Shown piece by piece: positions 49,784-61,174 of a DNA stretch of 64,000 bases. A program made the translations under genes and the position numbers. The notes under the pieces are model-generated. The model saw only the letters and a list, made by a program, of their open reading frames with translations. It did not search any database and was not told where the DNA came from. The stretch comes from a virus (taxonomy: Duplodnaviria > Caudoviricetes): positions 3,216-67,215 of the IMG/VR virus record IMGVR_UViG_3300046529_000616; one strand, 5' to 3'. The stretch's first letter is position 1; every line of letters begins with the position of its first letter.

Positions 49784-50068
49784 CTACAGTTCGATGTCGA
49801 CAGCTTGGGAGTGGGTTTTTCGTTCCCGAACTTTCGGGGTTTTGTTCTGGTCTTCTTGGGTCCAACGATAGGCTTGCGCCCGGACCATGTTGACGAAAGA
49901 GGTTAAGTCCTTGTCGGTAATTCGACCTGGAAGCCCAGCGACAAGGTTCTGGTTGATCCGATCCAGAAGTTCATCGACCGCTTTTGGATCTGCTTCGGAG
50001 AGGGGCGAGTCTCCGTCGAGAAGGTCGAGAGCACCGCGAAGGGCAGCGGTCAGGTTGGGATCAGCCAT
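49784..50068 (-). CDS. Early hypothetical protein ending in the AVDIEL tag
   Basis: 94 aa; C-terminus SQAVDIEL*. Confidence 0.65.
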   Translation of the reverse strand: MADPNLTAALRGALDLLDGDSPLSEADPKAVDELLDRINQNLVAGLPGRITDKDLTSFVNMVRAQAYRWTQEDQNKTPKVRERKTHSQAVDIEL

Positions 50069-50273
50069 TGGATGGTTTTCCTGGAGCTACGAAACGCCAC
50101 TTGGTTTGGATACGGACGCCGTCCAGTTCGATAGTTACGTCGCCGTCTTGGAAGACTTCGATGACTTGACAGGGACGTGGACGGGCGGCAACTTGGTCGT
50201 AATAGAGTCCGGGCATGTCTCCAGTGACTCTGCCCATGCCCAGGTCGTAGCCAGCGCGTTCGATGGAAGGCAT
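50061..50273 (-). CDS. Hypothetical protein (SH3/Tudor-like)
   Basis: RPCQVIEVFQDGDVTIELDG beta pattern. Confidence 0.5.
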   Translation of the reverse strand: MPSIERAGYDLGMGRVTGDMPGLYYDQVAARPRPCQVIEVFQDGDVTIELDGVRIQTKWRFVAPGKPSNG

Positions 50274-50277
50274 TTGG

Positions 50278-50508
50278 TTATGCTCCGGGAATAGTGTCTT
50301 GGCCGAGACCTTTGAGTTCTACGTTTTTCCAGTAGTCAAGAATCACGAGAAGCTCTTGTCGGACTCGGGCAATTCGCGCGGCTTCAGAAGCGTTCGGACG
50401 GATCTGTTTTAGGGACTGATCCAGATGGTCAAGTCTTCGTTGGATGTCGGAGAGGAATTCGTCCTTGAGTTCGGAGATGGTTCTGGCGTGGGAGACGTAT
50501 TGGGCCAT
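50278..50508 (-). CDS. Hypothetical coiled-coil protein
   Basis: AAGGA RBS; 76 aa. Confidence 0.6.
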   Translation of the reverse strand: MAQYVSHARTISELKDEFLSDIQRRLDHLDQSLKQIRPNASEAARIARVRQELLVILDYWKNVELKGLGQDTIPGA

Positions 50509-50521
50509 GGAGGGAGTCCTT

Positions 50522-50719
50522 TCAGCTTTCTATCTTGTCCAAGGCTTCGCGCTGCTTTGCTTTCATCTGAAGCACAACGGAATGGACCATCTGTCGGATG
50601 ATGGCATTTTCGCCCGATCCGCCGGAGCTGGCGATTTCTCGGATGAATTCCAAGTCGTCTTCCCAAAGCCTATGACAGACTCGGACTTTGGGTACATCGC
50701 GGTCGGAAGAAGCGGGCAT
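50522..50719 (-). CDS. Possible ribbon-helix-helix DNA-binding protein
   Basis: KVRVCHRL beta strand followed by two helices (EDDLEFIREIA; ENAIIRQMV). Confidence 0.45.
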   Translation of the reverse strand: MPASSDRDVPKVRVCHRLWEDDLEFIREIASSGGSGENAIIRQMVHSVVLQMKAKQREALDKIES

Positions 50720-50907
50720 CAGGAGTTCCTTTTGGAGTCGAAGTCACCGGAACGGATTCTGTGCATAAATTTTAGAATGGCGTTTTCGGTTAGATTATAT
50801 GGCGGATCATGGTTGAGCAAAAGATGTTCCAATGCTTCTGGAGTCATGCCTGTTGGAGCATAACCAAACCATAACAATGCCCATTCAAGTAATAGAGCGT
50901 AACTCAA
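50719..50907 (-). CDS. Hypothetical protein
   Basis: ATGA overlap; 62 aa. Confidence 0.55.
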   Translation of the reverse strand: MSYALLLEWALLWFGYAPTGMTPEALEHLLLNHDPPYNLTENAILKFMHRIRSGDFDSKRNS

Positions 50908-51209
50908 AGGTCGATCTCCACTTCGTCTTTTTCGGGGTTTTCGTCCGGGTCGTCTGGCATAGGGACGTTGGGAGTGTTGATGACCCAGATTTTGTTTTCG
51001 GGTTCAGTGGGATGTAACCGGACTTGAATGTGTTGCCAGTCTCGATTTTCTTTCTTAAACCGATACAATATCTGTTTTGCTCTAAGGGCTGGGGAGGGAA
51101 GGTCGCCGACGACTTCGACCTTGACTTCGAGTCCGATGTCAGACATCGCGGCCCGAGTCAGAATCTGTCGAGCGTTTTGGGCGAGGAGTGAGTTGTTGTC
51201 GGAAGGCAT
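50904..51209 (-). CDS. Early hypothetical protein ending in the EVEIDL tag
   Basis: 101 aa; C-terminus KDEVEIDL*. Confidence 0.65.
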   Translation of the reverse strand: MPSDNNSLLAQNARQILTRAAMSDIGLEVKVEVVGDLPSPALRAKQILYRFKKENRDWQHIQVRLHPTEPENKIWVINTPNVPMPDDPDENPEKDEVEIDL

Positions 51210-51212
51210 GGT

Positions 51213-51473
51213 TCAGATGCTCCACTCTGGCGCTTTGATAACGACCAGTCCTGTTGGATCATCGAGGAGTCCGAGGCCGATTAGTCTATCACCACAAATG
51301 GAATTGAAATCTTGTTGAAGGATTATTGTCGGTTCGAGTTCGGAGACCCAATGCTGGAGCATTTGGTAGATCATAAACTCTCGCCGAAGATTTATCGACC
51401 GAGCGAGACGATTGGTATGCTGACTCAGGAGGTCTGAGTCTACCATTGGTGGAAGGGGTTTAAGACTGAACAT
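51213..51473 (-). CDS. Hypothetical protein
   Basis: AAGGA RBS; 86 aa. Confidence 0.55.
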   Translation of the reverse strand: MFSLKPLPPMVDSDLLSQHTNRLARSINLRREFMIYQMLQHWVSELEPTIILQQDFNSICGDRLIGLGLLDDPTGLVVIKAPEWSI

Positions 51474-51480
51474 AAGAGTC

Positions 51481-59741: not shown

Positions 59742-59887
59742 TGGAGTTCGAGTCCGTAAAGTTGGCCCAGGATGTGAGGTAGTATGAGGGGTGGAATGAT
59801 GGATAGGAAGTGAAATCGGTATGTGTGGATGGGTGGGAGGGTCGAGGGGCTCATAGGTATGCCTACTGCCTTCCTGACTGGGTTCTA

Positions 59888-59919
59888 TTTTTTTTTTTTT
59901 TTTTTTTTTTTTTTTTTTT
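59888..59919. repeat. T32 homopolymer tract
   Basis: 32 consecutive T, counted directly. Confidence 0.9.
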
Positions 59920-60008
59920 GAGTCAGAAGCAGAGTCCAGCTCAGAGTCCACCTCCCAGTCCGCTACCAACCGCAAGGGGAGATACATAACCCGACTTCAC
60001 ATCGGTAT

Positions 60009-60264
60009 CTACAAATGGACTAACAAAAGTACAAACAAACAAGTCCAATTCGAGTTCGATCTTGAACATACAAGTCGAATTGGAGTTTGACTTAGTACCT
60101 GCGCCGGAACTTGAGTCGGGAACAAATAGGCATACATGGAAGGGTCTTCAACGTATGCACAAAACTACAAACCAGGGGCCTGAACTACAAGTCCGTTAGC
60201 TACAAACCTCGAGCGCGACTACAAACTCGAGGTACAATTCCGAGTCGGAAGGGAATAACTACAA
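60009..60264. repeat. Iteron-like TACAA[A/G] repeats
   Basis: CTACAA at 60009, 60165, 60185, 60200, 60219, 60259; GTACAA at 60029, 60232; ATACAA at 60068. Confidence 0.7.
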
Positions 60265-60317
60265 GTCGGGAGGCAGAAAAAATCGCTTGGATTCGATCAA
60301 AAAGGCTTCGCCGGGGC

Positions 60318-60346
60318 TTGCGCTTTCTGGCTGGAAATGCCATATT
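60318..60346 (+). promoter_or_regulatory. Putative sigma70 promoter TTGCGC-N17-CATATT
   Basis: Same TGC-CATA(A/T)T extended -10 as the 58539 promoter; faces the 60608 gene. Confidence 0.55.
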
Positions 60347-60352
60347 TCACTT

Positions 60353-60587
60353 GCGGTTGGTTTACGGGGCTTCGGCCCGCGCCGCTCCCGGTGAGGGATA
60401 GCTTCCCTCGCTCATAGGTTCCCGGGAATGGTAGGCATCTTGCATGTGCAATCTCTGCCTACTGGGCCGCAAGTAGCCATTGCCGCCCTCCCGCAAGCGC
60501 CGCAAGGCGTGAATAAGCGGGGCTTCAAAATCTGTTCTGTTAAGACCGCGCTGCAACGGACTTGCAGCATTCTCGGCCAAGACGGCC
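60353..60587 (+). ncRNA. Candidate structured 5' leader or ncRNA
   Basis: Consecutive hairpins: GGGC-TTCG-GCCC (60367-60378), GAGGGA/TCCCTC (60393-60409), GTAGGCA/TGCCTAC (60431-60462), CGCC-GCAA-GGCG (60498-60509), GCTGCAA/TTGCAGC (60550-60568). Confidence 0.45.
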
Positions 60588-60607
60588 AAACTCAAGGACT
60601 CTATCAC

Positions 60608-61174
60608 ATGGCACAAGGCAATAACAATTCCGCGACGCTTTGGAGTGAGTCGGCTTCGCGGTGCAAGTATGCAGTTCATGGCGGCGCGCCAATGATCGGC
60701 GTTAGCGGCGATACTGGCGACGGCTTCATCGTCCCGGTTCCGGCGCCAGCGTGGTTCGCGGCAATCGAAGACGAAGGCACGCGCGATAACGTGTTTCGGG
60801 CACTCAGTTCCCATGCACTTCGCGTTGGGCAGGCGAAGCTCAAGGCGGCCGATACGCCGACTCGCGAGATTGCGGTTGCGGGCGTAGCTTCTGCCCTCAA
60901 CGGCGGTTACAAGCCTGGCCGCGAGACGGTGAACGACATCGTCGAAAGCGAGACGGCAACCCGGTTCGCGACTCACGTTCGCGGGCTGGTGCTCAAGGCG
61001 AAACCGGATGCGAGCGAGAAGGCGATTGTCGATACCATCGGTAAACAGGCCGCGAGCGAAAAGGGCAAAACCCTACTCGCCAAGATTCGCGGTGAGGTGT
61101 TGGCTTCGATGACTTACACCGTTTCGCGCAAGGGCAAGGGCGCCGACACCGGCGTGGTTGAGATTGAACTGTAA
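60608..61174 (+). CDS. Early protein ending in the VVEIEL tag
   Basis: AAGGA RBS before ATG 60608; C-terminus DTGVVEIEL*. Confidence 0.7.
   Translation: MAQGNNNSATLWSESASRCKYAVHGGAPMIGVSGDTGDGFIVPVPAPAWFAAIEDEGTRDNVFRALSSHALRVGQAKLKAADTPTREIAVAGVASALNGGYKPGRETVNDIVESETATRFATHVRGLVLKAKPDASEKAIVDTIGKQAASEKGKTLLAKIRGEVLASMTYTVSRKGKGADTGVVEIEL

Follow-up and report, generated by a model that had tools for sequence, protein, structure and literature searches.

What reads a short peptide that several otherwise dissimilar phage proteins carry at their C-terminal ends? The question is raised by a 64,000-nucleotide stretch of viral DNA (IMG/VR record IMGVR_UViG_3300046529_000616, positions 3,216 to 67,215; hereafter the window), which represents most of a tailed-phage genome and in which eight non-structural proteins terminate in one and the same acidic-hydrophobic peptide, here called the tail. 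We describe a computational analysis of this tail, of the protein families that bear it, and of related contigs. Judging from sequence comparison, the tail is very probably a portable docking motif that tethers seven or eight non-structural protein families to one common, fast-evolving reader. We also propose, with less than even confidence, that this docking tail is read by a phage-encoded MoxR-type AAA+ ATPase together with a VWA-like protein of the DUF7192 family.

Results

Eight dissimilar proteins end in one short peptide

The tail was defined strictly, as [A/V/E]-[I/V]-[D/E]-I-[D/E]-L, and counted in the 473 six-frame open reading frames (ORFs) of at least 45 amino acids, a set of 50,261 residues. 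The pattern occurs eight times in this set and every occurrence falls no more than four residues from the stop codon (0, 0, 1, 4, 2, 0, 0 and 0 residues away, in coordinate order), so that all eight C-terminal copies listed by a first-pass annotation of this DNA were recovered in their places (Table 1). Amino acid composition predicts 0.0017 C-terminal occurrences, and the eight observed ends compare with a mean of 0.0015 and a maximum of one in 2000 within-ORF shuffles, which upholds the enrichment at C-termini over shuffled controls.

All-against-all BLASTP detected no meaningful pairwise similarity among the eight protein bodies, which rules out hidden paralogy of the tagged proteins. The bodies match no Pfam or PHROG family, and the ESM Atlas supplied neither usable neighbours nor hints of function. 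The annotation had described the bearers as unrelated effectors; their bodies are indeed mutually dissimilar, but they are not orphans, each belonging to a family of the phage clade described below (the 79-residue protein only to one shared with the contig L001, where its sole ortholog was found). The tagged genes would also be expressed early, a label that is read from gene position only.

Three gene boundaries differ from the ORF limits. The family D protein probably starts 14 codons further in than its ORF, and the family F protein most likely begins at the ATG at 60608, which gives the 188 amino acids found in its orthologs, the ORF being open from 60428. The gene for the 79-residue protein is real despite overlapping a longer ORF, and the next gene begins at an ATG near 57420. 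The longest-ORF call at that place, 57169-57708 (-), is too long, this ATG lying just past the stop of the upstream tagged gene.

Table 1. Positions in the window of the tagged genes, the ATPase with its internal motif, and the DUF7192 gene
Feature	Position	Strand	Length	Tail or other details
Tagged protein, family A	49784..50068	-	94 aa	Q-A-V-D-I-E-L at 49787-49807
Tagged protein, family G	50904..51209	-	101 aa	E-V-E-I-D-L
Tagged protein, family C	51481..51774	-	97 aa	A-I-D-I-E-L, then G
Tagged protein, family B	51784..52191	-	135 aa	A-I-D-I-D-L, then D-S-L-L
Tagged protein, family D	52576..52962	-	128 aa (ORF)	A-I-D-I-D-L, then D-L
DUF7192 protein	54320..55648	-	442 aa	Pfam DUF7192 3e-28; translationally coupled with the ATPase
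MoxR/CobS-like AAA+ ATPase	55645..57153	-	502 aa	Pfam AAA_5 3.5e-8; phrog_249 5e-43; AlphaFold2 model; 30 homologs
Tail-like motif in the ATPase linker	56845..56871	-		Q-D-I-N-I-D-L-D-D, preceded by a basic stretch
Tagged protein, no family letter	57429..57668	-	79 aa	V-I-D-I-E-L
Tagged protein, family E	57855..58478	-	207 aa	A-I-E-I-D-L
Tagged protein, family F	60608..61174	+	188 aa	V-V-E-I-E-L; first rightward gene

Tail spelling follows the genome

Relatives of the window, which come from soil metagenomes, were found via homologs of its ATPase. In the close relative L001 (89% identity) the tails are kept with conservative changes, and contigs whose ATPase is 33-55% identical to that of the window each have a tail spelling of their own: V-V-E-I-E-L in L049, L-[D/E]-L-[D/E]-L in L048, x-M-E-L in L131, L-A-[I/L]-D-L in L133 and L217, A-[V/I]-D-V-E-I in L139, V-L-D-I in L137, D-F-S-N-L-L in L130 and L-x-N-L-[S/T/D]-L in L216. 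By BLASTP seven of the eight tagged proteins belong to distinct families, conserved through the clade at 25-50% identity and traced across at least 14 related soil-phage contigs, and a check proposed in the first-pass annotation came out in its favor: orthologs keep the tail while their bodies diverge to ~20-50% identity, and each uses the spelling local to its own genome. Family A orthologs bear the local tail in L048, L131, L139, L130, L137 and L133; family E has orthologs in 11 contigs, all 11 of which end in an alternating hydrophobic tail spelled as in their own genome; and the positional orthologs of family F, 18-60% identical, keep both a basic linker and the local tail. The tail is also gained or lost as a C-terminal extension, family G having it in four genomes (the window, L001, L048 and L133) and lacking it in four (L137, L139, L131 and L130). 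Another family is untagged in the window and bears the tail in L139 and L048. The possibility that the tag is a trait of a single family is ruled out, since seven families bear it, with gain and loss.

This local spelling was measured by scoring pairs of tails by their best 5-mer BLOSUM62 match. Tails of different families in the same genome have a mean score of 15.0, tails of the same family in different genomes 10.0, and tails differing in both family and genome 8.7. When genome labels were permuted within families the mean was 9.4 +/- 0.4 with a maximum of 11.3, and none of 2000 permutations reached the observed value. Many unlinked peptides under protein-level selection have therefore changed in concert, as is predicted by co-evolution with one shared reader. 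The annotation had proposed an address tag that routes its bearers to one hub; peptide selection and concerted spelling support the address and, in principle, a hub.

Local spellings would also arise if the reader came from the host (the beta sliding clamp, an enzyme that binds the SSB tip, RNA polymerase or a chaperone, for example) and the spellings followed different hosts; takeover of the host by early proteins is common. Clamp-binding peptides have the consensus Q-L-x-L-x-L/F or Q-L-[S/D]-L-F. Like these peptides and the gp45-binding tails of T4 gp43, gp33 and gp55, the tails are short alternating hydrophobic motifs on unrelated proteins that would dock on one hub; hydrophobic residues occupy clamp positions 2, 4 and 6 in all eight window tails, and some relatives end in L-D-L-[Q/S]-F. 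The defining Gln, however, is absent or out of register in most tails: two of the eight window tails contain a Gln, displaced by one residue, and most relatives have none. Furthermore, no clamp gene was found in the window, and the phage polymerase belongs to family A. Even related phages have sharply different tails, a diversity of dialects unlike that expected of a conserved pocket, and both clamp pockets and SSB tips show high conservation across bacteria. A host reader therefore appears unlikely.

Phages and prophages that carry more distant relatives of the ATPase lack its N-terminal extension, and 44 viral, 80 genome and ~70 metagenome loci of such relatives showed neither tail enrichment nor homologs of the tagged families. 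Because they lack both, these loci give no independent test.

Selection acts on the peptide

The first-pass annotation had argued from differing synonymous codons that selection acts on a peptide and not on a DNA repeat. For the window alone this argument is weak, the tag codons being more uniform than genome usage (Ile is ATC in 11 of 13 cases, Asp is always GAC, and Leu is CTG in five of eight) and synonymous variation being confined to Ala and Leu codons; in the relatives, synonymous sites clearly vary freely. Six L131 tails encode their terminal Leu by six different codons, which excludes homogenization at the DNA level, and a similar spread is present within the tag sets of L048, L133, L137 and L139. 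Because synonymous codons vary freely inside each genome's tag set, selection is on the peptide. The motif is always in frame and its variation is concentrated at third positions, and a degenerate DNA pattern found ten matches in the window, namely the eight tags plus an internal copy and a chance match in antisense. A DNA repeat, a regulatory element and gene conversion are all ruled out by in-frame placement, third-position variation and the free use of synonymous codons in the relatives.

The tail presents a hydrophobic free end behind a linker

The breadth of the tail is best seen in family B: clustered at 50%, the public sequences matched by its profile come to 245 representatives, and 72 of these fall below 1e-10. 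In the best 149 of these 245, a hydrophobic residue comes last in 89% (Leu 55%, Phe 15%, Ile 13%) and stands at position -2 in 68%; an acidic residue occupies position -1 in 45%, where Gly accounts for 21% and Pro for 0%, and position -3 in 54%. Pro and Lys/Arg abound at positions -9 to -14. Short homologs include a large group that ends in [E/D]-[E/D]-L-G-L. In general, a flexible linker rich in Pro, Lys and Arg leads to [D/E]-hydrophobic-[D/E/G]-hydrophobic, placed at the C-terminus or within a few residues of it. The tail of family B is thus an old and general feature, with the look of a free-end motif behind a flexible linker. No homologs of this family were found in cultured phages.

A free hydrophobic end of this kind recalls the class II PDZ ligands (hydrophobic-x-hydrophobic-COOH), which 92 of the 149 family B tails fit; the known bacterial PDZ proteins, however, are mostly periplasmic. 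A scan of ~40 window proteins revealed no PDZ or other dedicated peptide-binding module, except the TPR repeats of a TPR-glycosyltransferase in the head module.

The tails might alternatively need no separate reader. Their alternating strands could pair with each other or with the basic linkers that adjoin the acidic tails, so that the tagged proteins and the ATPase form a complex or condensate in which concerted change mirrors mutual compatibility. The strict alternation of hydrophobic and polar residues, which extends to 10 residues in L139 and L133, is typical of strand-forming peptides. A uniformly acidic face nevertheless disfavors self-pairing, many tails have only two hydrophobic positions, and a location at the very C-terminus, where the last residue is mostly hydrophobic, speaks for recognition of a free end by a pocket. 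We regard mutual assembly as quite improbable.

A further reading takes the tail as a signal that times removal of the tagged proteins by a host or phage protease; C-terminal degrons are the classic shared tails, and early proteins often need clearing. C-degrons of the ClpX type have a non-polar end such as L-A-A. All eight window tails are acidic at position -1 from the motif end, and neither an Ala-Ala-type nor another ssrA-like non-polar end is present. The tagged module contains no protease gene, and a conserved internal copy of the motif in the ATPase linker (see below) is hard to explain as a degron. A role in degradation is accordingly very improbable.

Genome setting and the replication arm

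The rightward head, tail and lysis genes occupy the window from 1 to ~32.6 kb, and a leftward arm from 32.7 to 60 kb contains non-structural genes encoding a two-part family-A DNA polymerase, a CHC2 primase, a DNA methylase, ERF, a PD-(D/E)XK nuclease, the MoxR/CobS-like AAA+ ATPase and then the DUF7192 protein. Within this replication/recombination arm, the tagged genes are flanked by the PD-(D/E)XK nuclease gene (48386-49483) on one side and the ATPase gene on the other. No tRNAs were found in the window, and its capsid protein is only ~38% identical to those of the nearest cultured phages.

This location is what would be expected if the tails tethered accessory proteins to the replisome and their reader belonged to the phage's own replication or recombination machinery (for example the family-A DNA polymerase in its two parts, the PD-(D/E)XK nuclease, ERF, the primase or a helicase). 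Outside the clade, tailed family B homologs are also present in other phage groups (L274, L275, L277, L279 and L280), where their neighbors include a UvrD-like helicase, a PD-(D/E)XK nuclease (with Pfam support for the nuclease only in the clade) and a Sak4-like gene, and in L275 tail-like endings are present on the UvrD-like helicase and the Sak4-like protein as well. A disordered, Pro-rich linker followed by an acidic tip with a hydrophobic free end is moreover the docking principle of SSB and of T7 gp2.5 and gp4 (PMC10164576, PMC10359462). Against this, no tagged protein matches an SSB or DNA-binding family in Pfam, PHROG or the ESM Atlas, and the motif in the MoxR-type ATPase is left unexplained. 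SSB and T7 tails have conserved Pro-Phe or Asp-Phe ends, whereas the window motif ends in Leu in all eight cases and none shows the Pro-Phe end of a typical SSB tip. In those systems, in addition, one tail serves many readers or two proteins (gp2.5 and gp4) serve one polymerase, that of T7; here the bearers are many and the spelling changes between related phages. We consider a replisome reader rather unlikely.

The annotation had also listed a capsid-loading signal and a host protease among its candidates, and we found no evidence for either. A C-terminal location and binding to HK97-fold shells are properties of encapsulin cargo peptides and scaffold tails, and one tail protein of the window (24839-27091, +) ends in a similar way. 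This ending is a family trait, however, present in many homologs (40-50% identity) from viral contigs outside the clade, and the protein was rejected as a tagged late protein; the tagged genes all lie in the non-structural arm, and no gene of the head and tail module carries the tag. Incorporation into the capsid or virion is therefore a highly improbable role. The shared ending of this tail-protein family (24839-27091, L219-L265) is D-[D/N]-[F/Y/W]-G ... [I/L]-D-[L/F]-G-x-[A/V]. The ORF at 69-554 (+) encodes the C-terminal piece of a large virion protein that matches minor head and DarB-like PHROGs; it ends in a Lys/Arg run followed by W-L-E-L-G-A-I, which is loosely tail-like.

A tail-like motif is conserved in the ATPase

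The AlphaFold2 (AF2) model of the ATPase consists of a confident helical N-domain (residues 1-85), a disordered linker (residues 87-142, predicted local confidence (pLDDT) ~40), a long helical stretch, and an AAA_5 core with pLDDT >90. The linker contains a tail-like motif (Table 1) in a region of pLDDT ~43 without secondary structure, and nearly all of the 30 homologs that bear the N-domain have, at the same place, a basic stretch followed by hydrophobic-[D/N]-L-[D/N]. Several ATPases, including those of L048 and L049, also end tail-like. The most divergent clade member is L216 (a 75 kb contig of JGI 3300065511), in which Ser, Thr or Asn replaces the acidic face in the tails and in the linker motif (S-F-S-L-N-I) alike, acidity being lost in both. 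The N-terminal module of the ATPase was considered as a fused tagged protein and rejected: it resembles none of the small families, and no stand-alone form of it was found.

The annotation had reported two internal copies of the motif, of which the one in the ATPase is real and conserved and the one in the protein at 59019-59987 (-) is absent from the closest ortholog and was discarded as a genuine tag. The longest-ORF call for the latter gene is too long, its orthologs beginning at residue 83, and the eleven consecutive Lys codons near 59890 probably belong to A-rich, non-coding sequence upstream of the gene.

The DUF7192 protein is a putative VWA-like partner

The gene that follows the ATPase encodes a protein whose first ~160 residues are hyper-acidic and precede a divergent VWA-like domain (AF2 predicted template-modelling score 0.77). 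Foldseek returned nothing significant, its best match being the NorD VWA domain at E 0.036. VIA-align placed the MIDAS domains of MDN1/Rea1 at the top (Z 6.1 and 5.8) and the VWA domain of NorD in fourth place (Z 5.0), and nearly all of its top 50 matches are VWA or MIDAS domains, with Z no higher than 6.1; given these low values, the modelled domain is best described as VWA-like. DUF7192 proteins of this clade are absent from GTDB genomes.

Throughout the clade, the N-termini of these proteins are hyper-acidic, low-complexity segments of 100-200 residues, like the acidic linkers that precede the MIDAS domains of Rea1 and BchD. The ending [V/A]-A, found on several DUF7192 proteins and on most ATPases of the clade, recalls the hydrophobic C-terminus that docks NorD on NorQ. 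In six clade contigs the DUF7192 gene is adjoined by a gene for a 205-residue Cys-rich protein (53414-54031 (-) in the window; C-x2-C-x2-C-C and further Cys), which has no Pfam match; it may be a metal or Fe-S protein with a link to the ATPase pair.

A cultured phage with such a pair is the Acidobacteria Tunturiibacter phage Tunturi_4 (L218; PP885687.1, record 48371-77045), which encodes a CobS-like ATPase without the N-domain (gp88), a DUF7192 protein (gp87) and its own clamp (gp79). No acidic-hydrophobic tails were found in record 48371-77045. Among the 38 proteins of this stretch, eight end in Ala-Ala and 14 in Ala, far above composition, and these endings may represent a different shared C-terminal code.

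Discussion

The concerted spelling of the tails argues for one shared reader, whose rapidly evolving binding site would very probably give each phage its own spelling. The most likely candidate, to which we nevertheless assign less than an even chance, is the ATPase/DUF7192 pair. The tail-like motif of the ATPase linker, and the joint loss of acidity by tails and linker motif in L216, are in its favor. The pair adjoins the tagged genes in every clade contig long enough to show both, and its architecture has three counterparts among known machines. In CbbQ-CbbO, an AAA_5-type ring and a VWA partner recognize Rubisco through a C-terminal motif, whose position must be exact, together with an acidic residue, and an 11-residue C-terminal peptide stimulates the ATPase (PMC4660213). 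That machine has one dedicated substrate with an H-[K/R] end, whereas here an acidic-hydrophobic end is common to seven or more unrelated small proteins and the MIDAS of the VWA-like partner is degenerate. In NorQ-NorD, the hydrophobic extreme C-terminus of NorD docks on the post-sensor-1 loops of the MoxR-type NorQ ring, and deletion of its last two residues abolishes the complex (PMC13036017). DUF7192 resembles the NorD VWA domain, but the docking tail of that system lies on the VWA partner itself and not on clients, and the DUF7192 proteins here have no tag at their ends. The third counterpart is Rea1/Midasin, an AAA_5 machine of eukaryotic ribosome assembly in which several clients share one address element. 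The MIDAS domain of Rea1 binds the ubiquitin-like (UBL) domains of Rsa4 and Ytm1; it is also the best fold match of DUF7192, with an acidic linker before the MIDAS in both, although its address element is a folded UBL domain and not a tail of 5-7 residues.

By analogy with the way CbbQ-CbbO recognizes the Rubisco C-terminus and an acidic residue, the tail would plug into the face or the pore of the ATPase ring, or into the VWA-like domain. Tagged proteins would thereby be delivered as clients or co-factors for remodelling, assembly or release, and the copy in the ATPase linker might act as a tether or as a competing pseudo-client.

Several observations weigh against the ATPase/DUF7192 pair as the reader. 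The ATPase itself bears the motif, as would be expected of a fellow client no less than of a reader; the AAA+ protein of the machine that the annotation listed among its candidate hubs is thus a bearer of the tag at least as much as a reader. The resemblance of the linker motif to the tails of its own genome is modest (14.1 versus 11.4, with the own genome ranking first or second in five of nine cases). Within the clade the tags are always accompanied by the ATPase, so that their co-occurrence is uninformative there. In the other phage groups with tailed family B homologs, neither AAA_5 nor DUF7192 was found within the 10-17 kb available per contig (L274, L275, L277, L279 and L280), these contigs being incomplete; this weakens the case for an ATPase/VWA reader and, given the incompleteness, does not refute it. 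The fold match of DUF7192 is weak, and its MIDAS signature in the window is degenerate, with D-Y-N-H-W after strand 1 in place of D-x-S-x-S; the signature is present, as D-Y-S-x-S, in the DUF7192 proteins of L216 and L217. Finally, in L216, where the tails are not acidic, the conserved DUF7192 residues are unchanged.

Tails that bring proteins to a single hub are known from SSB, sliding clamps and degrons. Full-text literature searching found no published description of such a shared tail on phage proteins, and none of a tail borne by many proteins whose spelling changes in step across one virus. Whatever its identity, a reader of the tail would join seven or more uncharacterized "dark matter" proteins into one pathway. 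The dialects provide a built-in test of specificity, in that a phage's own tails should out-compete foreign ones, and the tail could serve as an orthogonal, portable recruitment tag.

It is possible, though doubtful on present evidence, that the tail constitutes a client code for a phage MoxR AAA+/VWA-like machine, in which plug and socket co-evolve into phage-specific dialects. If so, MoxR-class ATPases would gain their first known natural system for addressing multiple clients, the widespread "CobS/CobT-like" gene pairs of phages would acquire a function, and phage CobS/CobT-like genes now annotated as "porphyrin biosynthesis" would need re-annotation.

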